From a virus: DNA of 64,000 nucleotides. The translations under genes and the position numbers were made by a program. Every line of letters starts with the position of its first letter. Position 1 is the first letter of the stretch. Location: the IMG/VR virus record IMGVR_UViG_3300029566_000004; one strand, written 5' to 3'. The notes below the pieces were generated by a model, which did not search any database, was not told the origin of the DNA, and worked only from the letters and a program-made list of their open reading frames with translations. This document shows, piece after piece, positions 15,602 to 57,286 of the stretch.

Positions 15602-16204
15602 ATGAAAATTGTAAATTATGAATAGCCGAAATCTAGTTTTTTATCTATTGATAAAGATATGAATTAGATTACGAATAGAATACTGGATAATGATAGACTT
15701 TGTAAAATGCTTTATTATTCTTCACCTGATGCATTAAGACGTGAGCCCCTAACTTTGGAATAGAAGCAATCTATGTTTGGAAAGAACATTAAAATTGTAC
15801 CTAAATTAACTGTAGATAATGAAGTTCTTCAGTACTTAGTAATTGGATTTAGTAATTTTATTACTAATCCTACCAATCCTTAGTTTAGAGACCACACAAT
15901 TGAGTTTGATATTGTGTGCCATTTTGATCAATGGACACTTGGTGATTTTGCGCTTAGGCCTTATAAAATTGCCGCTGAACTCGATACAATGTTTAATAAT
16001 CGTAAGTTTGTCGGAATCGGTTTATTGGAATTCGTGGGGGCGACTCCAATAATGTTAACTGATGAATTTGGTGGACTTTGTCTAATGTATAGGACAGTTA
16101 ATGGTGAAGATGATAAAAAACATGCTCCAGTAGACCAAGCTGATATTGTCGAAAATTTCAATAAAATCTTTAACGAGCCGAAAGATGAGTCGATCATTGA
16201 ATAA
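15602..16204 (+). CDS. Hypothetical neck/tail-completion-type protein (200 aa)
   Basis: An AAGGAGATAAAGGA RBS precedes the ATG at 15602. Four TAGs, TAA at 16202. Confidence 0.5.
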
Positions 16205-16938
16205 TGCATGATTTGCGTTTAGCCCTTATGTGCGGTACTGATATCCCTATACCAGAATGCGCCTTGACCGCACATCAACCTAAGTTATCAGAAATAGCCT
16301 TCATTGGGGAAACCGATTATTTTATCGGTATGCAATGTTTGTGCATAGATAAAAGCATGCTCGGTGATTTTAGCGAAGATTAGGGACAAATTAATAATTT
16401 TACTGTTTTTATGACTATGTTAGCGCAACCTGAAATGAAAGACAAAAAGAAAGCGGTAATTGATACTTTAGACTTAATATTTGGTAATTAGAAAGTGGCT
16501 TTCACCCCACATTCTTTAATATTTACTGCCAATGGGTAGAATCCTTGTACGGTTGACGAGACCAATTTTGAGCCTTTTCAGAATACGTTACGTGAAATTT
16601 TTTGTGCAAAGAATGGACCAATGGATTAGCAAGCTTTTAATCCAAAAGATGCAAAAGCTAAAGAAATAGCTGATAAGTTAATGCGTGGTCGTTAGAGAGT
16701 TGCGGCATAGCAAAGCGCAAATGAAGGTGGTAGTGCTTTTGCGCGCTATATTTCCATTTTAACTATTGGAACAAATACTATGAATATTCAAGATGTCAGT
16801 AACTTAACTATGTTTTAGTTATATGATTTAATTGAGCGTTATTTCTTACATCTTAATTGGGATATGGATATTCGCACTCGTCTTGCAGGCGGTGATCCGA
16901 AATCTCAACCCGAAGATTGGATGAAGAATTTACATTAA
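16204..16938 (+). CDS. Hypothetical structural protein (244 aa)
   Basis: TAATG overlap with the upstream gene. One frame runs to the TAA at 16936 with seven TAGs. Confidence 0.5.
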
Positions 16939-16973
16939 ATAAAATGATATTTTATAAGGAGGAAGAGTAGTAT

Positions 16974-17753
16974 ATGCCAATACTACCGGAACACAAGGAG
17001 ATTCTATTGTCCGAGAGCAATAGTAAAACCTTGCCTGAATGGTATGAATTTTTTGATTCTCAATATACAAAGAGTCAAATATATTCATTTTGTCATAGAA
17101 ATGGTTTATCTGTAAAAAGAATGCCCAAGGAAAAGAAGTCTTTAATTCAATCATAGAATGCTAGAAAATATAATATTAATCAAGATTATTTTAAAAAATG
17201 GTCTAATAATATGGCTTATATTTTGGGATTATGGTTTGCAGATGGCTGCATTTATGGCGGAAAAATGTTTGATATTACTTTACATAAAAAAGATAAATAT
17301 ATTCTTAAAAAAGTTGCTGAAGAATTAGAATACGAAGGATCTATATATGATTATGTAGATAAATAGGCAGTAAGAATTAATTTTAGTTGTAAAGTAATTT
17401 ATAATGATATAGTTGCTCTAGGCGGAAAAGAATAGAAAAGTTTAGATATAAAATTTCCTTTAATTCCAAAAGAGTATCTACCTGATTTTATTAGAGGATA
17501 TTTTGATGGGGACGGTTGTATAATGAATTTAAAAAATAATCGCCTTAATGCCGCTTTTACTTGCGGAAGCAAGCAGTTTCTTGTTGATCTTTTGAAAATA
17601 CTAAAAACTGAGGCTGGAATTGAAGGTGGTAGTTTTGACGACTCTTGCTGTTCATTAAAATTTGGAAAGAAAGATACTATTCGCTTAGGAAATTATATGT
17701 ATAAAAATAATCCAAAAATATTTTTATTAAGAAAACGACAAAAATTCTTTTAA
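16974..17753 (+). CDS. Free-standing LAGLIDADG homing endonuclease (259 aa)
   Basis: An AAGGAGGAAGAG RBS is present. Two LAGLIDADG motifs are seen (LGLWFADGC and IRGYFDGDGC). Three in-frame TAGs. The TAA at 17751 overlaps the RBS of the tail tube gene. Confidence 0.8.
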
Positions 17754-17768
17754 GGAGGAAATTATATT

Positions 17769-17782
17769 ATGAAATTTGGCGT
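17769..17782 (+). CDS. Major tail (tube) protein, 14-nt exon 1
   Basis: A TAAGGAGGAAAT RBS precedes ATGAAATTTGGCGT. The last 7 nt pair with GCGCTAA (17792-17798) as a P1 helix, with a U.G pair at the splice site. Confidence 0.6.
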
Positions 17783-18010
17783 GAATTGCTTGCGCTAATA
17801 TACCCTATCCAATTTATCATTGGGGTCCGATAAAAAACGGGCTAACGGGGAACTAAAAAAGAATCCCGTGGCATTTCCGCAAGGAAGCGCTGTAGAGACT
17901 AAAATTCTTAATCGAATTTGTAAGTTAATTATTGATACATTAACTGAAAAGGGTATATCAATGTCTAGAACATTGATAAGATATAGTCCATAATTTAAAA
18001 AATTATGACG
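17783..18010 (+). mobile_element. ORF-less group I intron (228 nt) in the tail tube gene
   Basis: GTAGAGACTAAA (R-like, 17892-17903) and AAGATATAGTCC (S, 17978-17989) are followed by a hairpin and a terminal G at 18010. Splicing 17782|18011 gives 14+1093 = 1107 nt, in frame. Confidence 0.7.
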
Positions 18011-19103
18011 CGAAATTTGCGATGTTGTCTTAAAGGCTAAGGCAACTCAGAAAGTCGGTAATAAGGTTTTCTACAAGAATGAACCTGTTATTTATTTTGA
18101 CACTTTAAAGACCTCCAGCCTGGAAGGTGCGGCAACCACTGTTTATGCACAGGGTGGTCGTGGTAATAGCCGTCTTGTAGCTTGGGAAGGTGAGCGTACT
18201 GTTACCTTCACAATGGAAGATGCTCTTATTTCTCCTGCTGGTTTCATGATTCTTTCTGGCGCTGGTCTGATTGAAGGAACAGAAGCTGATCCTATTCCTG
18301 TTCATACGATTGAGACAACCGATCAGTTCAAGTACACAGATGACAATACTGCGGTTGAAATTTATGTTAAGGAAAAGCCATATGTTGCTACAGTGACTAC
18401 TGGTGAAAACGATGGCGCTGTAACTACTGCTGTTGGTAAGGAAGATTTCGTCTATGTTATGACCATGGTTAATGGTGAAATTGTTAGTGAGCCATTTGTG
18501 CCAGCTCGTAGTTGGATACCTGCGGCAACCGCAGAAACAACTGGTGCATATAAAGGCTTATGGAAGATTACTATTCCTGTTAATGGCGTTACTGAAGCTA
18601 CCGATAATGGTGTAACTACACCTCCTCAGGGCCTTGATACACTGAACAGCGATAAGCCAAAGAATCAGCTTGGTTACTTTGATGGCATCGACGCTGTTAT
18701 TGTTGACTATTATACTGCTAAAGGTAAGGGTGCAATGCAGATTGATATTACTCCCGATAAGTTCGGTGGTAACTATTATCTTGAAGCTTCCACATTGTTC
18801 CGTAATACTGATGGTGTTGATCTTCCCGCGGAATTTATTATTCCTAACTGCAAGATTCAATCTAACTTTACTTTCACTATGGCTTCTTCTGGCGATCCAA
18901 GTACCTTTACATTTACAATTGATGCTTTCCCTGACTATACTCGTTTCAACAAGACTAAGAAAGTTCTTGCGGCAATTCAGATTATTGATGTTGCTTCTGG
19001 TGCAGGTCTTGAGAATCGTGTACGTCCTACTCCCGATGAGCTTGCAGCTAATTCTGAGCCTTATCGTGAGAAGACTAATACTGGTTGGCAGCCAATTGAA
19101 TAA
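18011..19103 (+). CDS. Major tail (tube) protein, exon 2 (368 aa in total)
   Basis: The frame is open from 18009 to the TAA at 19101 with no TAG and highly-expressed-type codon usage. It sits upstream of the chaperone and tape-measure genes. Confidence 0.65.
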
Positions 19104-19348: not shown

Positions 19349-19369
19349 TCCGCTTTAAGCGCAAAATTG

Positions 19370-19401
19370 GGGACAGAGTTTTATGCTCTGTCCCTTTTTT
19401 T
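19370..19401 (+). terminator. Rho-independent terminator
   Basis: GGGACAGAG-ttttatg-CTCTGTCCC followed by TTTTTTT. Confidence 0.8.
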
Positions 19402-21284: not shown

Positions 21285-21309
21285 ATATTGAGAGAAAGGA
21301 GCTAAATAT

Positions 21310-24300
21310 ATGAATTCTAATCGAATAAATGTAACATTAGGATTTAATGCAGATGTTGGTGCTGCTAAAGCAAATTTAAAAGATTTACAAGCTACATTAA
21401 ATGAAATTAGTAATTTAAAATTAGAGCCTGGCACTAATTTAAATAAATCATTACAAGAAGCTATTTCTAGTGCTGATATTTTATAGTAGCATTTAAATGC
21501 TGCGATGGATGTAAAAACCGGAAATATTAATGTAGATAAATTTACTGCAAGTGTTAGCAAAAGCAGTTAGAGCATATTATAGTTAGGTAATAATTTATTA
21601 AAAGCTGGTATGACTGGTGAAAAAGCATTTACACAATTATAGAATGGTTTAACTATGGCTAATATTAAACTTACTAAATCTAAGAATTTATTAAGTGAGT
21701 TTTCAAAAACTTTAGCAAATACTGTACGTTGGCAAATTTCTTCCACTATCTTACATGGTTTTATGGGAACTATTTAGAGGGCTTATGGATATGCTTAGGA
21801 TTTAAATAAATCTTTAACTAATATTCAAATTGTTACATAGTAGACAACAGAACAAATGGAAGCTTTTGCCGAGCGAGCTAATAAAGCAGCTAAAGCATTA
21901 AGCGCTTCTACTTTAGCCTATACAGATGCAGCATTAATTTATTACCAATAGGGCTTAGATGACTCAACTGTTGAAGCACGAACTGATGTTACTATAAAAA
22001 TGATGAATGTAACAGGTAAAAGTGCTGAAGAAATTTCTTCCTAGATGACAGCTATTTGGAACAATTTTGATGATGGGACGAAATCTTTAGAGTATTATGC
22101 AGATGCAATTACTGCTTTAGGTGCGTCTACTGCTTCAAGTTCGAAAGAAATTGCCGAAGGTTTATAGAAATTTGCTGCTGTTGCTGATACTGTTGGTTTA
22201 TCTTATGAATATGCTACTGCAGCGTTAGCGACAGTTGTTGCAGAAACACGTTAGAGTGCGGATATTGTTGGTACAGCTTTTAAAACTTTATTTTCTCGTT
22301 TAGAAGGTCTAAAATTAGGTGAAACTTTAGAAGATGGAGTTGATTTAAATAAATATTCTAAAGCATTATAGGTAGTTGGTGTTAATATTTTAGATGCTAA
22401 TAACAATTTGAAAGCAATGGATACTATCTTAGATGATTTAGGAGCTCGTTGGGATACGTTAACAACTGCTCAACAAGTATCATTAGCATAGACTGTTGGT
22501 GGTGTACGTTAGTATCAACAATTTGTTGCTTTAATGGATAATTGGGATAAAGTATAGAAAAATATATTAGTTGCGGCTAATTCTGAAGGTACGTTACAAG
22601 AATAGGCAGATATTTATGCTAAGTCTTGGGAAGCAGCTAAAAAACGTGTTAAAGCTTCACTCGAAGAATTATATACAACTTTAATTGATGATAAATTTTT
22701 TATTGGTTTAACTGATACATTAAGTAAAGTTATTTCACTTGTTACCACTTTAGCTAAGGGAATGGGCGGAGTATCAGGTATTTTAATGTTTGTAACAAAT
22801 ATTTTAATGACTAAATTTGCTCCACAAATTACTATGGCTTTAAATAGTGGAATTAAAAAAATTTCGCATTTTTCTTTAAATTTAAAATCATTAGTTAATC
22901 CTATTACAACTATTAAAGATACTTTTATTTTAATGGGGCGTGATAGCGAGCAAGCAGGTGCTATAATGGCACGTCGTACATAGGAATTAGGAAAAGCTTT
23001 AGAGGCAAGTGCAATTTCTGGACAATAGTTAGCAAAAGAATTAAATCATATTGGTACTACTTCTACTTAGCCATTAACTGAGGGATTTAAGGCTTAGTAG
23101 GCTGGATTAGAAAAAATTAATGGACTTATTGATGTATATTAGGGTAATTATTCAAAATTAACTGAACAAGAGCGTCAATTAATTTAGGGCCAATTAACTG
23201 AATTGGTTAATTTAAATAATAATGTAGCTGCTGCACATGATATGGTTGAAGAATTAGAATCTTAGCGAGACATACTTCGTGATATGGCTTCATTTGATGT
23301 AGTGGATTAGGAAAATTATGATATAAATTCTGAAGGAACTGCGGCCACTTTAAATGTATCTGGTGTTTCAGATGAGTTAAGAATTATTAGTTCTTTAATT
23401 GAAGATACCGGAGCTAATGTAACTTATGTTAATGGGTAGGCATAGCAAATTTAGGGAACTACAACAGAGTTAGGTTTTGTAATGGCTAATGTTTCAGATG
23501 AATTAGAGGATAGCGTTGCTGTTTCTCATGATTTGGGTAAAGTCTTAGAACATGTAACTTTAGAAGTTGATAAAACAGGTAAATTAACTACTAAAGGTGA
23601 TAGAGCTCTTCGTCAAATTTATGGTAGTTTAGGTAAAACTAGTAAATCGGCTGATATATTAGTAAAACGATTATAGAGAGGTAGTATATCAGTTGAACAA
23701 TTTTAGAAACATTTAAAAAATTTGCCTAGTACTACAGCACGTTTTGCAAAACAAATGGGTTTGTCAGATCAAAAAATACTATCTGCATTAAAAAATGGTC
23801 GCGAGTTAAATAATGCTTAGAAAAAATTAACGCAAGAAACAAATAATTATAATTCAGCCTTAACTAAAGCAATGTCTACTTTATCAACTGGTATTACTAA
23901 AGCCATAAGTATTGGAGGCCAAATTCAAGGCGTTGCACAAGGTTTAAATGGTTTAGCAATGGGCGTAAATGCAGTGCGTAATGCTTTTTCTACACTTAAT
24001 GATGAAAATGCAAGTTTTTGGGATAAATTTTCAGCTTTTACAATGGGTGGCGTAATGGCATTAAGTGGTTTTATGTCAGCAATGCAAGCTATGAATAATA
24101 TCTTAAATGCTTCTATTGGATTATCTGCTAAACGCGCTGCGGCTGGAGCTATTGAAAATACTGTTGATGCTACTAAATTAGGTATTTAGAAAGCATTGTC
24201 AACAGAAGAAGGGAAAAATGCTGTATTAGCAGCAAAACAGTTAATTTTAAGTAAAGCAAAAGCTGGTGCTTCTGAAGCTGAAACTACAGCAGAAGTTGCA

Positions 24301-27300
24301 GCATTATTAACGAAACAAACTAAATTAAGCACTGAGGAAGCAGAATTAGCTGCCACATCTTTATTAACAGGTGCAAAAGAAGCTAATATTGTTGCTACGA
24401 CTGGTCAGGCTGGAGCAGAAGTCTTGCAAACTAGTGCCACAGTAGGCGCAACTGCGGCTTAGTGGTCATTAAATGCAGCAATTTATGCAAATCCAGTTGG
24501 CTCAATAGTTTTAGCAATTATGGCATTTATTGCCGCCTTAGCAGCATTAATTGCTATTATTGCTGTTTTTTGTAAACAAGAAGATGAGGCAGCTAAAAAA
24601 GAAAAAGCTGCTGCAGCTGCATTAGAAGAATCTAAAGAAGCTGCAAAAAAAGCACATGAGGCATATGATGGATTATATACTACGGTAAGTAATTATAAAT
24701 CAGCAGTTGATGCTTTAAAGAAATGTACTAAAGGCACAAAAGAATGGCAAGAAGCATTTGAAGAAGTTAATAAACAAGCACGTGACTTATTAAAGAAGTA
24801 TCCAGATTTATTAAAATATAAAGATATTTTTAATAGTGATGGTTCTATTAATATAGAGCGTTTAAATAAATATGTCGAAGAAATGGGAAAAACAGCTCAG
24901 TCCGCTGACGTATTAACTCTTCGTAGATAGAGTGATTTAGCTGTAGCTACTAATGACCGAAAAGTTAGTGATTTGCGCACAAAGTATCAAACTAGTGTAA
25001 ATAGATAGAATCGGAATGTCTATAAATCATCGATAGCTGAGGCTATAATCGATAAAGTGCGTTTTGAAGATATTGATGTTAACAATATATATGCTTTAGA
25101 AAAGGCTGTTGGGGAAGTAGTAAGTTCATTTGGACTAACGGGAGATGAATTTAATAATACTGTCGAGGAGATGGTATTTAGTATTGGCCTATTAAAAACT
25201 GATTTTGTGGACTTAGCATCAGAAACAAAAGACACTATTTAGAGTTTAATTAATGCATAGAAATTAATTGCACAAGAATTATTTCCGGAAGATGCTGCTG
25301 AAAATCCAGCTTTAGCATCTGCAGAAGTCGAAGCTTATAATGAAATGCGTCAAAAAATTCGGAAGAGTTATCAGGAAGCTATTGATTATGCAAATGATCA
25401 CAATGCCGGCAAAGGTGATAATGTCGAAAATATGCGCAACAACGATAAGGGCGGTAAAAAATTAATAGAAATCGCAGAAGACTATATTGCAACAGATGCT
25501 GATATGAAAACTGGTGATTGGGAAGTTGTGTCAGATGATGCCATTAAAAAGAAAGATGGAGTAACATATATTCAATACCGTAATAATCAAGGCGACACTA
25601 CTTTACGAAAAGTAGAAAGTGTGGTGGATGCTGTCGCGGAATAGAAAGCGGTTGGTAAATTAGACGAAATCAAAGACTATGGTCGTGAAAAATATGACAA
25701 ACGACAAGAGCAAATGGGAGCGGCTGGTCAAGAGTTTTTAGTTAATGAAAATTTTTCAGAAGCTACCATAGGTAATGTAAAAAGTTTATGGGGCCGTTCA
25801 TTCGAAAAAATCTATGGCGATGATAATGAATTGCGCAATATATTAGCGGCAAAATATGGTCTTGATGCTGATGAAATAACTAGTGGAATGATTTCTAGTT
25901 TTAAATAGAAATATTATAATAGCATACAAGGCGTTCAAGATGCTATCGGTAAATTGCCAACAGCTATGACAACAGTATTGGGTGATGGTGTTGATTAGTT
26001 GTCTGTTACTACTCTTAATGGTATTAATACATTACATAGTAATTTAGTGAGCAAAGCGGATGAAGTAACCGCAGCTAGTGTTGAATCTTCTTTAACTCAA
26101 TTGGCTGTTGATAATCCTGAGCATATGCAAGAAATTATTTCTACTGCAAGTCAAATCGATTGGGCAGATCCAAAGGCATTAGAGCGTTTTAATGATTTAT
26201 TAGTTTCGCAAGGAGTTATTTTAGATCAAACTAGTGCAAGTTATACTGATTTTATAGCTTCATTAAAAGATATTCCTTTATCTATCAATCCTGCTAATTA
26301 TCAAGAAGTGCGTAAATCATTTTAGTCTTTAAAAGAAATGGCAGAAGATATTAAAATTGGTTCAATTATTTCAGATGAAGATTATTAGAAAATTATTGAG
26401 ACTGATAGCGCTCTATAGGCATTATTCGTACAAACTGCAAATGGATACGTGTATACTGGTTCACAAGATTTAGGTAAGATTGTAAAAGAAAAATTTCAAG
26501 ATAATATACGTCAAAATCTTGATTAGGCTACAACCGCCTTAGCAGGCATTGATGCATCTGATAATTATGGCTATGGTAATTTTAAATCAATAGATTATGG
26601 TGCCGTAGCATCATAGATAAGTGATGGTGATGGTCCTGACTGGGCAACTAGTTTCTTAGGAACATTGGCTAATAGTGAAGATGCTGAAGAACTGGCTGCA
26701 ATAGCTGGGGTAAGTGTTGAAAAATTTAAAGAATTAGCTTCGAAAAATATGGCAGACTTAACCGAAGCAGAGAGCGCTGCTGTTGAGGGTATTTATCAAT
26801 CTATTGCTGAGCATTAGGGCGATCTAGTAGCTTACTAGCAGAATATTACCGACGGTTTAATACAATTAGGCTCTTCATATGACTCTTACGCTGAAGGTTT
26901 AGCTGCTATTCGTTCATATGCTAGTGAAGAATATATTTCTGATGAACAAATCCAAACCGCAATTGTAGGTATGACCAATGCTGCAGTTATGGGTGTACAA
27001 AGTGTTAATGAATTAGAGACCGTCTTAAGTAATATAGCAAACGCTGGAGTTGAAGTTGATTATGCCGTGATTAGTGCATCATTACTTAATTTGGCTTCCC
27101 AGTATGATAATGCAGCCGATGAAGCTGCACGATATGCAGAAGTAATTAAATATGGTACTTAGGAAGAAATTGCAGCTGCTGAAGCTACATTAAAATTAGC
27201 AATTCATATTGGTGAATTATCAGAAAAATATGGCTTAGAGGCAAATAATGTAGAAACACAAGCAAAATTAATAGCAAAAGAATATAATATTAGTGCAGAA

Positions 27301-30300
27301 GCTGCGGCAAATTTAGCTATTAAAAATTAGCGCATGAATAAAGGCGTATTGGCTTTAAATGAGAATTTTAAAACTTGGAATAAAACTTTAATTGAAGCTG
27401 ATCATAAATCAACCGATTATGCAGATGCTTTAAATCAAGCTAACACAGCATTAGCTGATTTAACTGGTGCACTTGATGCGACTACAATTCCTTTAGATTT
27501 TCTAGATGATACTACTAAGTCAGGAGCAAAACATTTAAAATTATTAGAAAAAGCAGCAGAAGGTGATGCTGATGCAATTAATGAATTGGGTGTTGAATTA
27601 GCTTATACACAATTAGCTGCGTTAGATTTTCGTGATACAATTACTGGATTTAAAGATGCTGATGGAAATTAGTTAGATCCTATTAATTTAGATAAATTTA
27701 AGTCAGATAAAGAAATTGTTCTATTCGGTATTGAAGATTTGCATCAAAAATTAAAATCTTTAAACGATGGTGATGATGTTGGTAATATTTTAGGACAAAA
27801 TTGGGTAGATGCTTTAAATGAAATGGCAATGGCAACAGGCATGTCTGTTGAACAAATGCAAGCTTATTTAAATGAATTAAATATTGATACTGAAGTTACT
27901 ACTATTCCTGTTACACAGATGACAAGAGTTCCATAGTATACCACTGAAACGACTGATGTCGTAACAGCGAAGACTGATTCAGGGTATGAATATATTTCTT
28001 CTATGAGTACTACTACACGCTAGACTGGCACAAAAGATTTAGAAGAAACTATTGATGTAGCACAAATAGGAGTAGGAGATAAAGCGGGTGAACCTCCAAA
28101 AATTACATATCGTGGTGCAAAAAGTAGTGGCGGTGTTTCTAAAAGTTCTATACCAAGTAAAAATAAAACAAGTGGTAATAAAAAAGAAAAGAAAGAGAAA
28201 AAATCAGCTGAAAAGGAAACAGAACGTTACCATGAAATAACCGCGTTAATTGAAGACTACACTCGTGAATTAGATAAAGCTGGTAAGGCTAAAGATCGTG
28301 CATTTGGTCCTAAGAAATTAAAAGCAATGCAAGCAGAAATCGCGGCTTAGGCTCAACTTAATGCCGCAACAGAGGAGCATATACGAGAAATTCGTGAATG
28401 GCTTGAAATTGATAAGGCTCGTATTGCGGCCCAAGGTGCAACATTTGATGAGTATGGTAATATATCTAACTATACTGATTTAATGCAACAACATATTGAT
28501 GCTTATAATGCAGCTGTAGCTGCGTATAATGCAAGTGGACAAAGTGATTCTGACAAAGAAGCTATGGAAGCTGCTGATAAAGCATATCAAGATTTCATGG
28601 ATTAGCTTTCTCAATATGAAGAAACAAATAATTTACTCCAAGAGAAATTAGATGAATTAATTGAAGCGCAATAGGCTAAATATGATAAAGAATTCGAAAT
28701 GTTACAATATACAATTGAATTTAAGATTGAAGCAGACGATTCAATTTTATCATATTTAGATTATATGAAGAATAAAATTGAAAACTTTAATGATGGAGTG
28801 CATGATGCAGTAGAAATGCTTGCTACATTAAATGACGAAGCCTCTACATTAATGAATAAAAGTTCGATATATAATCGTGCGATTGATGATACTTTAAGTC
28901 ATTATTTAAGCAATAAAGGCATGGAAGAAAGCGATATTTAGGCACTTATTGATCGTTTTAAATCTAATAATATGTCAGAATCAGATATGTCCATGCTTGA
29001 AGATATGACCGAAGCTGAATATCAATATTTACTTGAATTAAAAGATAATTTACTTGAAATCAATAATAGTTTAATTGAAAATATGAGTGCGGTTGTTGAA
29101 ACTATACGGAATAGTTTTAGTAAAATTGCAGAAGATTTAGATAAAGCAACTCGACCTATTGAACGCGCAGCTAGTGCTTTAGAAAATTATGTAGCTATTA
29201 TTGATATTATAGGACGTGATGCGCTCGGTGTTACTGATGCAATTGCGACTGAGCTCGACAATGCGGCAATAGCAGTTGCGCATAGTGCGACCATAGCAGC
29301 TAAAGCGAAAGTTGATACATTACAAAGTGAACGCGATGAAGTCCAACGTCTTTATGACGAGGCTATGGCGCAAGGTCTTACCGAAATGGCATATAAGTGG
29401 AAAACTGTCTTAGAAGAAATGGATGATGAAATTGCTGCAGCAACTGATGATTTTAACTCAAAATGGTAGGAAGAACTTACAAAAGCTCGAGAAGCATTTG
29501 AAAATACTGTTGAACGTATTAAACAGAGCATGCTTGATGCATTTGCTGGCTTTATTGGCTCTTGGTCGGTACTTAAAGATAGTTTAGAATATGCGAAAAC
29601 TGCTGCTGATAGATTTGTGCCTCAATATAAAGAAATTTATGAATTAAGTAAATTAAATCGTGATATTATGAAGTCAATTGACAATACTTCTAATATTAAA
29701 AATAAATAGGCACTTCGTGACCTACAGAAAGAAATTAATGAACTTGAGTAGCATAGCGGTGAAATTAGTCAATATGATTTAGATAATGCTCGTCGTCGTT
29801 ATGAATTAGAACTGGCAAGGTTACAACTTGAAGAAGCACGAGATGCAAAATCAACTGTTCGTTTAAGCAAAGATTCTGAAGGTAATTGGTCTTATGTATA
29901 TACCGCAAATCAAGATGAAGTAGAAAAAGCGGAGCAGAATTATGAAGATAAGCTTTATGCAATGCAATAGGCTAATAGTGAATATATTAATAGTTTGTCT
30001 GATTAGATTTTTGCGCTTGAAGAGCAATATGCTGAAAAACTTGCAGAAATTCGTCTTGATAATACTATGAGTGAAGAAGAGCGTAATGCTGCCATTGAAC
30101 GCTTAAACGCTTACTTTGCTGAATAGATGGAGTATCTTACTAATGAAGGTTAGAAGGCTGTAGATAATAATGCTCGTTTATTTGAAGAAGAATGGACAAC
30201 TTATCATAATTGGACTGATGCTTTTGGTAATGATGTATAGGCTCGCATTAATAATCAACATGATTTCATGACTCAATTTGGTGATACTATACTTGGTACT

Positions 30301-31428
30301 TATACTGGTTATGGTAACTTTGATGAATTAAATGCGGCTATGGTACAAATTGCCGAAGAAGCTTCTGTGAAAATGGAAGAAGCATATGGCACACTTCAAG
30401 CACAAGTTGCTACTGCTATGGAAGCTGCTGGTATTGATGTTGCTCATTTTGGTGAAGTGGTACATGATACTGTTAATGAACAAATTGTACCATCTGCACA
30501 AGCTGCTGAAGATGCAGTTGTAAAAATGGGAAAAGCCGCAGTTGATGAATTTAACAACTTAGCTGATGGTGTTTCAGCATGGCAAATTAAATATACCACA
30601 GAAATGCAAAAAATTATTCAGAAAAATGAACAGTTAGCAGCTTCTGTTAATAATTTAGCCGCTGTTTATGCGAATTTGATTGCATAGATGTACGCCGTAG
30701 CTAATGCACCAGTACCAAAATTTAGTAACAGTGCTGCTGACTATTATGCAAATACTGGTGCGGGTGGTCAAAGTGCAAGCGGCGGCGATCCCAATTCTAA
30801 TGATCCAGAAGGCAATGAAAAATACTTAGATAGTGAGCATTGGAAATCAGATCATCATTATCATTGGAGAGTTCGCACATATAAATCTGGACGAACTGAA
30901 AAAATAGATAAAGGTCGCCATAAATGGTATCTTTGCGATCCTATTGTAATTGATAGTCATCATCATTCTCCAACAACTTTTGAATCTGCTTATTGTGCTG
31001 TTTGTGGCAAAAAAATTTCTATTAATCCATGGCATCAGTATGCATCGGTAGATGGCCAAGAAGTTATAATTCCTGGATATGATACTGGTGGTTATACTGG
31101 CAATTGGAATAGTTCGCAAGGCAAATTGGCGATGCTTCATGAAAAAGAACTTGTACTTAATAAGGAAGATACGAAAAATATTTTGGGTACTGTGGAATTA
31201 GTTCGTAAATTATCGCAAAAAATTGATTTAAATGCTCAAACCGCACGTTACGCATTTAATTATCATCCAATAATTAATAATCCGAAGTTAACAGATCGAG
31301 AATTACAAGTTAATTAGACAGTATCAATTACTGCGGAATTTCCGAATGCGCAAAATCGCACAGAAATTGAAGAAGCATTTACCACTCTTATTAACCAGGC
31401 TTCTTAGTTCGCTAATCAAAAGAATTAA
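21310..31428 (+). CDS. Tail tape measure protein (3372 codons)
   Basis: All 17 track ORFs from 22762 to 31317 share the frame of the ATG at 21310. Every interruption I traced is TAG (about 70), and the first TAA is at 31426. The N-terminal core resembles TP901-type tape measure proteins (...AEGL-Q-KFAAVADTVGLSYEYATAALATVVAETR-Q-SADIVGTAFKTLFSRL...), there are hydrophobic segments, and a conserved C-terminal GYDTGGYTGNW...LHEKELVLN motif is present. Confidence 0.85.
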
Positions 31429-54816: not shown

Positions 54817-55752
54817 CATTAAATCTAATTATTTCTAATTAGAATGGACTATCTCTTCAATATTTATTATTGTTTTGCACTTCGAATAGTAACTCATCTT
54901 CTATTCTACTGGGCTACACTCATCACCCATAGTCTCTACACCTTTTTTAAATATATTTCCATTTATAACCAAAAGCTTTTTTGCTATCTTTGCATCTTTT
55001 ACAAATATCTGAACTAGGAGTTTGACTAACTGTTAAATGCTATTTTATACACCAATCACCAGCTTCTTTTAAACTGTTGAAAATTTTAATTATTTTATAA
55101 TCGTCTGTACACATAGCTACTTTTTTACTATTTTTTTCCCTTATTTTATTTTTAGTTTCTTCTGTGTGGTGATGATTATAAAAAGGATTTTTTTCTCCTG
55201 TTCTTAATGATGCAATTTTTGATATTTTTTCTTTTGTTTTTTCATTATGCCTATGACCATAAAAAGGATTATTTTCTCCATAAAGTTTTTCTCCCCCATC
55301 GGTCATATTATATCCATTTGGCATTTTTGAATTAAAATATTTTATATAATACTATTCTAATTCTAATAATTTTTCTTTATCATCTTCATATACAACAACT
55401 TCATATTTAAAATTTTCCCAACCATATTTTTTAATTGCTCGCCCTAATAAAGTATTATGATTTATATCATCATTTTTATGTCGGCGCATTCTTTCTTTTA
55501 AAGTAGCTGTAGTATATCCGATGTACAGTTTATTATTTATTATATTGGTTATTTTATAGATACATCCCATATTATCACTTCCTTTGAAATATAGGAAATA
55601 TATTTAAAACTTGGCACGGTATTATCATATCCTTTTTATAGGACTTAGACTCCCTTACCCATAATATAATTACTTATTTCTGGACCGTTAGCCGAATAAT
55701 CGACACCCCTGAGTAATAGGGTTCACAAAATTTTAATTGACCTAGATTTTTA
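54817..55752 (-). mobile_element. Group I intron 2 in nrdJ (936 nt) carrying a GIY-YIG endonuclease
   Basis: Minus-strand elements GTAGAGACTATG (54939..54928) and AAGAGATAGTCC (54857..54846), then a TAATTA-gaaa-TAATTA hairpin. The 5' exon ends in U (55753) and the intron ends in G (54817). Splicing restores ...RQIGLGIMGLADAL. Confidence 0.75.
54947..55570 (-). CDS. GIY-YIG homing endonuclease (207 aa), intron-encoded
   Basis: The motif GCIYKITN...KLYIGYT is present. TAGs at 55352-55354 and 55040-55042 are in frame. Reading through them gives LELE-Q-YYIKYF..GYN..GG and a C-terminal ...KAFGYKWKYI tail. TAA at 54947. Confidence 0.75.
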
Positions 55753-56305
55753 AGCCAATTTGACGCCAATCGCGCACACTATCTCTTTGCTCTTGCAGAG
55801 GATGACGATACAGTCCCTCATCTAAAACATCGTTAAGTGCACGCACTGCAACATCAACTGCCCGTTCAAATTCTTTCCATTGAAATTCTCCATTTACAAC
55901 AAACGCAGCCAAATTTAATGAACCAAGTAAACAACTGCCGCCAGCGGGCAGTGGCTCTTCGGCGCAGGGATTAGTTCCAGCATATTCAAAATCCGGATGA
56001 GTATTTAGCATATTTTCTTGTTCAATTCTATCCCAAAACAAAATACCTGGCTCTGCATAATTCCAATTTTGTTCACAAAGCAAATTAAATAAATCTTTTG
56101 CTTTTACGGTTTTACTAATTACTTCACCTGTTTCAGGTCGAGTAAAACTTAATTCCCAATCGTTATCATGTTGTACAGCGGTCATAAAGTCATCAGTTAC
56201 GCGTACAGAAATGTTAGCATAATTAACTTTATTTAAGTCACTTTTGATTGTGATAAACTTTTCAATATCGGGATGGTCGCATCGCATGGAAATCATTAAA
56301 GCCCC
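55753..56305 (-). CDS. nrdJ: Class II ribonucleotide reductase, exon 2
   Basis: Contains GALMISMRCDHPDIEKF and the active-site TNPCAEEPL. No TAG. Confidence 0.8.
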
Positions 56306-57286
56306 CATAGTGGACTATATCTTATTTATTATATAATAATAAACTCGGGCGCTAATACGGTCTTATTGTTTCCTCAACCGTTAGTCTCTACACCTTCTAC
56401 TGCTTTTTCTTCAGTAGCTTGGCTCGGGGTTGTTGGGCCTTCCCCGAATTCACCCAATTCAAGACGCAGGGCTTGTGCTTTATCGTATTTTCTTTTTAGA
56501 ATAATAAAACTATCGTTTGGATAAATAAAATTTAAAAACTTTAATACATCTTCTCTATTGGCGAATTCTAATACGAAACAATTTTCATTAGACTTTGGTC
56601 TAATAATTGTTGAAATTGCGCATTGTTTTAATAAAATTTGTTGGATTCCTTCAAGTATTTTTAACGAAGAAGTAAAAGAGATTTTTTGCCATAATCTATT
56701 TCGGTCTTTTCTTCTACCCCATGTTAAACATCCGTCTCCATCAAAAAATCCTTGTACCAAATATTTTTCTAAATTTTTAGGAATAATGGGACAATGTTTA
56801 TTTTCTTTTGAAGAACAATGCTTATTAAAATCAGTAATTAAATCTAAATTACCAATAGTAATTCTAGCGCGAGGAAAACGTTTGGTTTTTGGAATATAGG
56901 TTAAATCTTCTGTATAATTTGCTCCAATGTATTCTGCAATAAATTGTAATATCTTTTTATCTTCTAAACAACACCCAAATTCAACTACATTATCATTGAT
57001 GTATCCATCTGCTAAAGCATAGCCAATAATATAAGCTTTTTCTGGAGTATCAATTTTATTAAACATTTTTGGGTTTTTATATTTAGGTTTTTTATATTTA
57101 GACTTGTCATTTAACCCATATTTAGTAATCCAATATTCAATAGTTGATTTTGCTTTTCCAACAATCTTTGCAATTTCTTGTTGTGTTAATCCTTTTTCTA
57201 AATATTTTTCTAATAGTTTTCTATTCACAGAAAGAGCCTCCTACTCTATATATTTTCGGAAACTTACAATTTAATTAAGCAAGTTT
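56306..57286 (-). mobile_element. Group I intron 1 in nrdJ (981 nt) carrying a LAGLIDADG endonuclease
   Basis: Minus-strand elements GTAGAGACTAAC (56391..56380) and AAGATATAGTCC (56323..56312). The 5' exon ends ...CGT (57287) and the intron ends in G (56306). Splicing restores ...GQNGRR|GALM. Confidence 0.75.
56374..57228 (-). CDS. LAGLIDADG homing endonuclease (284 aa), intron-encoded
   Basis: Two LAGLIDADG-type motifs (YALADGYIND and GFFDGDGC) plus an N-terminal HTH. No TAG. The TGA stop lies just 3' of the intron R element, so the ORF end overlaps it. Confidence 0.8.
   Translation of the reverse strand: MNRKLLEKYLEKGLTQQEIAKIVGKAKSTIEYWITKYGLNDKSKYKKPKYKNPKMFNKIDTPEKAYIIGYALADGYINDNVVEFGCCLEDKKILQFIAEYIGANYTEDLTYIPKTKRFPRARITIGNLDLITDFNKHCSSKENKHCPIIPKNLEKYLVQGFFDGDGCLTWGRRKDRNRLWQKISFTSSLKILEGIQQILLKQCAISTIIRPKSNENCFVLEFANREDVLKFLNFIYPNDSFIILKRKYDKAQALRLELGEFGEGPTTPSQATEEKAVEGVETNG

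Follow-up and report, generated by a model that had tools for sequence, protein, structure and literature searches.

A putative LAGLIDADG homing endonuclease gene next to a group I intron, itself ORF-less, in the tail tube gene of a phage that uses TAG as a sense codon

The interrupted tube gene and its element-free alleles

The window analysed here is the whole stretch of 64,000 nucleotides (nt) of DNA from a gut phage, filed as IMG/VR record IMGVR_UViG_3300029566_000004. On its plus strand, a tail tube gene is interrupted after only 14 nt by an intron, and a gene for a putative homing endonuclease of the LAGLIDADG family ends just before the interrupted gene begins. From 5′ to 3′, the locus consists of the homing endonuclease gene (HEG; 16974..17753), exon 1 of the tube gene (17769..17782), a group I intron of 225 nt without an endonuclease open reading frame (ORF) (17783..18007), and exon 2 of the tube gene (18008..19103). 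The HEG and the intron are considered below as the parts of a candidate two-part mobile element.

An earlier note on this DNA, made from the sequence alone, had described a strong ribosome-binding site, a 14-nt first exon at 17769-17782 followed by in-frame stops, and a tube frame that opens only at 18009. All of these are present: the Shine-Dalgarno sequence GGAGGA of exon 1 lies at 17754-17759; past exon 1 (ATGAAATTTGGCGT, encoding M K F G plus the two opening bases of a Val codon), the frame continues as GTG AAT TGC TTG CGC TAA, i.e., it stops nine codons after the ATG; and the tube frame is shut by the TGA at 18006-18008 and open from 18009. The next in-frame ATG, GTG or TTG is found at 18213 (Met69) and has no Shine-Dalgarno sequence, so that a downstream start was rejected, as the note had also judged. 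The 3′ splice site had to be moved. The note had ended the intron with G18010 (17782 joined to 18011; an intron of 228 nt and a product of 368 amino acids, aa), and this site was rejected since the conserved Arg6 is lost. Because intron-less homologues read MKFGV-R-EICD, the intron ends with G18007 and exon 2 starts with A18008. Joining 17782 to 18008 gives GT/A CGC GAA (V-R-E) and a product of 369 aa, the intron being placed between the second and third bases of the Val5 codon. The short first exon and the ORF-less intron of the note hold with this shift of 3 nt upstream, and the length of exon 1 is 14 nt in all 33 homologous loci.

The spliced product, whose exon 2 has no TAG codons, is a YomU-type tail tube protein: it is 98% identical over 100% of the length to P0001, a protein of 369 aa with a precomputed match to PF27173 (YomU_Tube), and it matches phrog_2729 (1.8e-47). 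The name YomU_Tube comes from precomputed matches, as the local Pfam copy gave no tube family; a sequence search of the PDB with the tube protein gave no match. More than 8000 tube homologues exist, and P0001 and ten others start with M(K/R)FGVREICD. The spliced junction, ATGAAATTTGGCGT joined to ACGCGAAATTTGCGATG, occurs naturally in some intron-less alleles, e.g., in locus L047. Gene callers miss the 14-nt exon and shorten the tube protein to 260-296 aa, and the same error is probably present in many gut-phage genomes.

The earlier note had raised intron-plus and intron-minus alleles among related phages, and both exist. Eight contigs that encode P0001 and are 97-99% identical to the window in the YomV and tube proteins carry neither the HEG nor the intron. 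In these contigs, the YomV stop is followed by 35 nt and then by ATGAAATTTGGTGT joined directly to TCGTGAGATT (also given as TCGTGAGATTTGCGATG), where the intron-less reading across the junction is ATGAAATTTGGTGT followed by TCGTGAG. Compared with these alleles, the window carries two insertions that are separated by 29 bp. The alignment breaks directly after copy 1 of a repeat (TTTTATAAGGAGGAA, 16950..16964, +); this copy is identical to the stretch before the ATG of the intron-less alleles, i.e., it is the original Shine-Dalgarno region of the tube gene and now serves the HEG. Copy 2 (TTTTAAGGAGGAA, 17748..17760, +) overlaps the HEG stop, supplies the Shine-Dalgarno sequence for exon 1, and is followed by the spacer ATTATATT at 17761-17768. 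Since the HEG has both exon 1 and the native Shine-Dalgarno sequence on its downstream side, the gene is free-standing in the window, as the note had stated, and not intron-encoded; its location inside a longer intron is ruled out by this alignment. The direct repeat that brackets the HEG cassette hints at insertion or movement by recombination at ribosome-binding-site microhomology. The same 225-nt insert, unchanged, was assembled independently at 15 loci, and dozens of others hold diverged forms of it; every one ends with G before the same codon.

Four synonymous changes separate the window from the element-free alleles within seven bases of the junction, at −3 (GGT to GGC), +1 (GTT to GTA), +4 (CGT to CGC) and +7 (GAG to GAA). 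Between 10 element-plus and 8 element-minus near-identical genomes, only those at +1, +4 and +7 are fixed in the first 1.1 kb of exon 2. On the left side, the comparison with single element-free genomes gave five differences in the spacer between the Shine-Dalgarno sequence and the ATG and six single-nucleotide polymorphisms (SNPs) in the last ~80 nt of yomV (positions 16887-16940); with more divergent element-plus genomes included, no fixed difference was seen in the left flank. This pattern of changes would fit a short co-conversion tract, selection on the P1/P10 pairing, or target immunity alike.

The intron fold and the endonuclease gene

The sequence that interrupts the Val5 codon is almost certainly a group I intron, judging from its predicted fold and from the covariation within it. 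P1 is formed by the last 7 nt of exon 1 (TTGGCGT, 17776-17782) and GCGCTAA (17792-17798), with a U·G pair at the splice junction, and two core motifs follow at 17892-17903 (GTAGAGACTAAA) and 17978-17989 (AAGATATAGTCC); both P1 and the motifs are as the earlier note had described them. The other helices of the plus strand are P3 (17800-17806 / 17950-17956), two hairpins between P3 and P4 (17809-17823 and 17826-17841), P4 (17845-17850 / 17864-17869), P6 with a GCAA loop (17870-17891), P7 (17897-17901 / 17984-17988), P7.1 (17903-17918), P7.2 (17923-17945), P8 (17957-17977), and P9 (17990-18006). The only ORF within the intron is a 57-codon frame starting with TTG, and the z-score of the minimum free energy is −4.25.

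Homologous introns were gathered from IMG/VR and metagenomes by means of the HEG protein, the tube protein and the core DNA pattern. From these, an alignment was built of 33 distinct introns, all ORF-less and placed in the same codon, with exon flanks of 8 nt (exon 1) and 10 nt (exon 2). Within this alignment, 96.8% of the cells assigned to pairs were paired, as compared with 35-44% when the partners were slid by 1-3 columns; 44 of the 72 pairs were changed on both sides (14-27 in the slid controls), and the covariation score was 0.499 (at most 0.095). The scored structure was derived from the window intron, which is itself in the alignment, so that the comparison with the slid controls is somewhat flattering, while the counts of compensatory pairs are unaffected. 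None of 500 shuffles reached the observed values, except for the count of further pair types, which was reached by one. Every core helix is 93-100% paired over the 33 sequences, and compensatory pairs account for 4 of 7 in P3, 5 of 8 in P6, 7 of 8 in P8, 5 of 5 in P7.1, and 7 of 7 in P7.2, P7 being invariant. A loop-loop pairing of the post-P3 hairpin with the P7.2 loop covaries as well. The U·G pair at the splice site and the G before exon 2 are each kept in all 33 introns. At P1 pair −3, UA occurs in 17 introns and CG in 16: the exon covaries with the guide sequence of the intron.

The P7.1 and P7.2 hairpins point to subgroup IA, and we describe the intron as IA-like, the subgroup being assigned by resemblance. 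Some features sit less easily with these assignments. The two hairpins between P3 and P4 lie outside the textbook core and are not a textbook IA feature; in P10, 75% of the cells are paired and one pair only covaries clearly; and in a permissive search, the Rfam model RF00028 scored 15.7 bits against a gathering score of 50 (E 0.08-0.43). At the gathering score, Rfam gave no match in the window and also missed two other group I-like introns there, so that the curated threshold misses all three. The earlier note had named the lack of a group I model match as a refutation of the intron. This objection holds by half: it stands at the gathering score, but the weak RF00028 match below it covers the full model (1-253) and is exactly placed, at 17773-18008. 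The other permissive Rfam matches were chance ones to small nucleolar or small RNAs (snoRNA/sRNA) only.

A search of GenBank phages with the intron (blastn) gave no match. In the collected loci, the same P4-P7 core, again ORF-less, was also found in other phage genes (L132, L141, L142, L146, L162, L163, L165, L167, L177, L178 and L183). Judged by eye from the translations, these genes are polymerase-, anaerobic reductase-, RecT/RecA- and terminase-like, and the tube HEG is absent from them. The intron is therefore of a common phage type.

The HEG, which ends with a TAA at 17751-17753, 15 nt before the tube ATG, is predicted to encode 259 aa with an N-terminal helical extension of ~65 aa. Its product matches PF14528 (LAGLIDADG_3) with 47.3 bits (cut-off 22.5), whereas PF00961 remained below its cut-off, and it matches phrog_4645 at 4e-47. 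Two motifs, LGLWFADGC and IRGYFDGDGC, correspond to the monomeric two-domain type, and the residues D90, G91, D178, G179 and G181 do not vary across 30 homologues of 70-96% identity. An AlphaFold2 model was made on P0121, a 96%-identical homologue (predicted local distance difference test 82, predicted template-modelling score 0.73). The PDB matches that Foldseek listed for it are all LAGLIDADG proteins: the TliVMA intein endonuclease, I-Tsp061I, I-SceI, I-AniI and I-DmoI. The probability is 1.00 for the top matches, and the template-modelling scores are 0.43-0.47; a sequence-only search of the PDB with the HEG product gave no match. Among GenBank phages, the best tblastn match was ORF036 of Bacillus phage 0305phi8-36, with 34% identity. 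The agreement of Pfam, motifs and predicted fold supports the product as a putative enzyme of the LAGLIDADG family, encoded, as the note had said, by a gene ending 15 nt before exon 1.

Three in-frame TAG codons occur in the HEG (17154, 17364 and 17433), and its frame is open only under a code in which TAG is sense. In an alignment of 39 homologues, the first TAG stands opposite Gln in 20 of 26 sequences and the second in 23 of 23, while the third falls at a variable position. Since TAG aligns mostly with Gln, the HEG is intact in the phage's own code. Among 39 distinct HEGs, 25 contain TAG (1-9 codons) and 14 do not (loci L011-L180). The element thus appears to be common to standard-code and TAG-recoded phages. 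A TAG-bearing HEG should be untranslatable in a standard-code phage, so that its transfer should be one-directional, and the HEG may exemplify how a selfish gene adapts when the genetic code is an alternative one.

Distribution of the pair and its possible spread

The HEG and the intron were found to occur together. Among the best 80 tube loci in IMG/VR, the intron is present in 6 and missing from 74; a full HEG accompanies it in all of the 6, and none of the 74 has one. When IMG/VR loci were sought with the HEG, 15 of the 16 had the intron at the same codon, the 16th being L118. Among 97 loci found via the intron core, the HEG lies just upstream in ~70. Over ~150 related loci, the two parts are present or absent together, and the exceptions fit decay. 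Four of the 97 loci, which form a single lineage, have the intron and no HEG. A truncated HEG accompanies the intron in L119, L123 and L128, and several copies are N-terminally truncated or stop-ridden. In L085, L087, L093 and L096, a HEG remnant of ~230 nt stands beside an intron-less tube gene; their junction sequence is that of L113 with its exons spliced, the mark that a precise loss of the intron leaves. The HEG is also better conserved across phages than its neighbours: its identity is 63-78% where that of the adjacent YomV is only 28-33% (78% versus 31% in L108; 65% versus 28% in L115), which argues for horizontal spread. Taken together, the loci correspond to the stages of the classic homing cycle, namely, invasion, decay and loss.

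A second layout occurs at the same Val codon. In L012, L115, L116, L117, L158 and L161, and in L140 as a pseudogene, the HEG lies inside the intron: exon 1 (ATGAATCGCTTTGGCGT) and the P1-P3 region of the intron precede it, and it replaces the second peripheral hairpin, just before P4, running into the core. The inside- and upstream-type HEGs are 55-73% identical, and the 3′ parts of the intron in the two layouts are 67-79% identical, as compared with a median of 69% among the upstream types themselves. In a neighbour-joining tree of the HEGs, rooted with ORF036 of 0305phi8-36 and a paralogue and read without support values, the inside clade of L115-117 is sister to the rest, while L012 is nested among the upstream types. 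One HEG family and one intron family would therefore share a codon in two layouts (~70 loci upstream, 7 inside). We see even chances that this is a record of the HEG moving between states. If so, nature would have documented how an endonuclease gene passes between the free-standing and intron-encoded states, and the two-layout family would argue against "HEG turnover" by an unrelated enzyme.

The layout that the earlier note had likened to collaborative homing is matched here: a free-standing HEG stands beside an ORF-less intron, and both come and go together. We regard a two-part selfish element that spreads by collaborative (trans) homing as the best-supported reading, with a probability of roughly 0.65. 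In a mixed infection, the enzyme would cut the allele that lacks the element, either at the Val5 junction or close to it. With the element-bearing genome as template, repair would then copy the intron and the HEG together, as only 29 bp lie between them, and the intron, by splitting the target site, would protect its own genome. The intron would presumably splice itself from the late transcript and join the exons. A ribosome that initiates on RNA not yet spliced would occlude the 5′ strand of P1 and reach a stop within its 3′ strand (TAA, 17796-17798), so that splicing would have to precede or compete with initiation. That the cut falls at the intron insertion site is suggested by the homologous HEGs (62-72% identity) that are intron-encoded at the same Val codon in other phages (L012, L115, L116, L117, L158 and L161). 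According to PMC3984707, intron-encoded homing enzymes typically cut at or near the insertion site of their own intron.

Some observations weigh against this account, and most of them speak for the two parts being independent neighbours: the target of the HEG would be the intergenic or Shine-Dalgarno region between yomV and the tube gene ("intronless homing"), and the intron would be an old passenger dragged along by the 29-bp proximity. With so short a spacing, linkage by itself would make the two parts co-occur, wherever precisely the cut falls. The HEG lies between genes, with a copy of the Shine-Dalgarno-region repeat on either side, and the SNPs reach ~80 nt to the left of it. One lineage keeps the intron without the HEG (L129, L136, L156 and L176), and the same intron core lies ORF-less in many other phage genes. 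In L118 (3765-4100), moreover, a 58%-identical HEG stands upstream of a different group I intron type (cores AATTGCGGGG / CAATCCGCAGCC / GTTCAACGACTAG) near the same tube site. Nevertheless, none of the ~150 loci showed a full-length HEG next to a tube gene that lacks the intron. The occurrence of the same HEG family inside the intron at this codon elsewhere points to the intron site as the ancestral target, and the duplication of the Shine-Dalgarno region keeps an intergenic copy intact in the carriers, where a target would remain undisrupted. We therefore hold independent homing to be unlikely, although it is the strongest competitor of collaborative homing.

A fixed relic, in which the intron splices while the endonuclease is inactive or repurposed as a maturase or for phage-phage competition, seems less likely still. 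Decay stages are common among the relatives, and the third TAG of the HEG is at a variable position. Besides, LAGLIDADG proteins can act as maturases, with I-AniI being among the fold matches, and interference between phages by an intron endonuclease is reported (PMC11620839). These points are to be set against a HEG ORF that is intact under the phage's code, catalytic motifs that are both invariant in the 30 homologues, the far better conservation of the HEG than of its neighbours, and the coexistence of element-plus and element-minus genomes that are 97-99% identical. Finally, the idea that there is no intron at all, but an internal tube start, an assembly artefact or a pseudogene, can draw on the empty Rfam result at the gathering score and the in-frame ATG at 18213, but it is effectively refuted by the loss of 68 residues (the most conserved part of the family) that this start would entail, by the identical insert in 15 independent assemblies and its dozens of diverged versions, and by the covariation of the fold.

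Known systems, genomic setting and other introns

Homing of a free-standing HEG together with a neighbouring ORF-less intron has precedents. They are reportedly due to Zeng, Bonocora and Shub (2009) and to Bonocora and Shub (2009), and the endonuclease of the T3/T7-like case is said to be of the HNH type. Collaborative homing was defined in 2009 for two phage systems, the psbA intron of cyanophage S-PM2 with the free-standing F-CphI and the DNA polymerase intron of T3/T7-like phages with a free-standing endonuclease (PMC3984707, section 12; PMC6083498). Vibrio phage ICP1 has a terminase intron with an adjacent T5orf172 HEG (PMC10448857). In all three, the HEG and the intron are inherited together, as in the window, and in ICP1 the HEG likewise lies beside a short N-terminal exon. 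The enzyme types differ, with LAGLIDADG in the window as opposed to the Endo VII-like F-CphI in S-PM2 and T5orf172 in ICP1. The window further differs from the three systems in that its HEG lies upstream, has taken over and duplicated the Shine-Dalgarno sequence of the host gene, and is inserted 29 bp from the intron. Besides, the phage reads TAG as Gln and its HEG carries TAG codons. Lastly, in relatives of the window, members of this HEG family are found within the same intron, an arrangement not reported for those systems in the sources cited.

The td intron of T4 with I-TevI and ORF036 of 0305phi8-36 share the ribozyme class and the strategy of targeting a conserved site in a coding sequence for homing. 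ORF036, from the DNA polymerase III alpha intron of that Bacillus phage, belongs moreover to an endonuclease family related to the window HEG. In such classical introns the HEG is internal, whereas in the window it is outside, and it is internal only in distant relatives (L012, L115-L117, L158 and L161). As for the host gene, the earlier note had called introns in tail tube genes uncommon. This needs qualification, since orf142 (tail tube) of Staphylococcus phage Twort contains three group I introns (PMC11878797). The Twort gene is thus interrupted in the same way, although its tube family is unrelated to the YomU type and the first exon of the window is only 14 nt. Tail-tube introns are hence known, and free-standing HEGs beside ORF-less introns are known but few; the window adds a further, well-populated example.

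Neither the window intron (blastn) nor a close relative of the HEG (tblastn, best 34%) was found in GenBank phages. What the window adds lies in the large natural series around it, above all in one HEG family that is found both within and beside the same intron, and in the spread over phages with two genetic codes. Because element-free loci, full pairs, decayed HEGs, introns alone and HEGs inside the intron are all represented, the proposed life cycle and the path that leads to mobile introns could be tested by comparison and by cleavage assays. The origin of the collaborative layout is stated as an open question in PMC10448857.

The window has 33% G+C, and TAG is a sense codon throughout it: stop-to-stop frames that are 100 or more codons long extend over 40.7 kb with the standard code and over 72 kb with TAG as sense. 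A tape-measure-like frame of 3379 codons (21292-31428), 3′ of the tube gene, contains 69 TAG codons, whereas the tube gene and some other structural ORFs contain none. No tRNA gene, a suppressor tRNA included, was found in the 64-kb window. The upstream neighbour of the HEG (16201..16938, +) is a YomV-like virion gene with TAG sense codons, 97-98% identical to the genes of L002-L009 that bear PF27211 (YomV_2nd). From the precomputed Pfam names on near-identical metagenomic contigs (YonB, YomW, YomV, YomU_Tube and, downstream, a PhageMin_Tail tape-measure gene), the neighbourhood is, by its gene content, the virion module of a large SPbeta-like siphophage, which makes "tail tube" the correct name for the gene that the intron splits. 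The nearest isolates overall are the Enterococcus phages EF1, EF5 and VRE9, with ~70% nucleotide and 40% protein identity in the tube gene. A scan for promoters and terminators between yomV and the tube gene gave nothing above chance, the sole strong terminator of the scan being at 19369-19395. Since no convincing signal splits yomV, the HEG and the tube gene, the enzyme is probably made from the late structural transcript via the original ribosome-binding site of the tube gene.

Tube genes of related phages carry further insertions. L028, from a 99%-identical phage, lacks the HEG and the 5′ intron and has instead, past codon 303 of the tube gene, a group I intron of 900 nt in which an HNH endonuclease ORF lies (L028:3910-4809; between 18902 and 18903 of the window). 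Strains of one phage therefore carry alternative tube-gene introns. In distant relatives, insertions of 1-2 kb occur at codon ~68 (L119, L120, L123, L125 and L128) and codon ~303 (L120 and L123), so that up to three interruptions, at codons 5, ~68 and ~303, are seen. L154, L155 and L181 carry a related intron with the same P4-P7 core and a different 5′ part, ~9 nt deeper in the tube gene (past ...GTGCGCGAGAT); it lies ~100-370 nt past the YomV end, and no HEG is found nearby.

Two more group I-like introns split a ribonucleotide-reductase-like gene on the minus strand of the window, the exon pieces of which are 57739-57275, 56362-55733 and 54838-53606. One of these introns (56300-57270; R core 56391-56381, S core 56323-56313), missed by Rfam at the gathering score, contains a LAGLIDADG ORF (57270-56374) that is 29% identical to the tube-adjacent enzyme. 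The other (54840-55603; R core 54939-54929, S core 54857-54847) contains a GIY-YIG ORF at 55603-54947.

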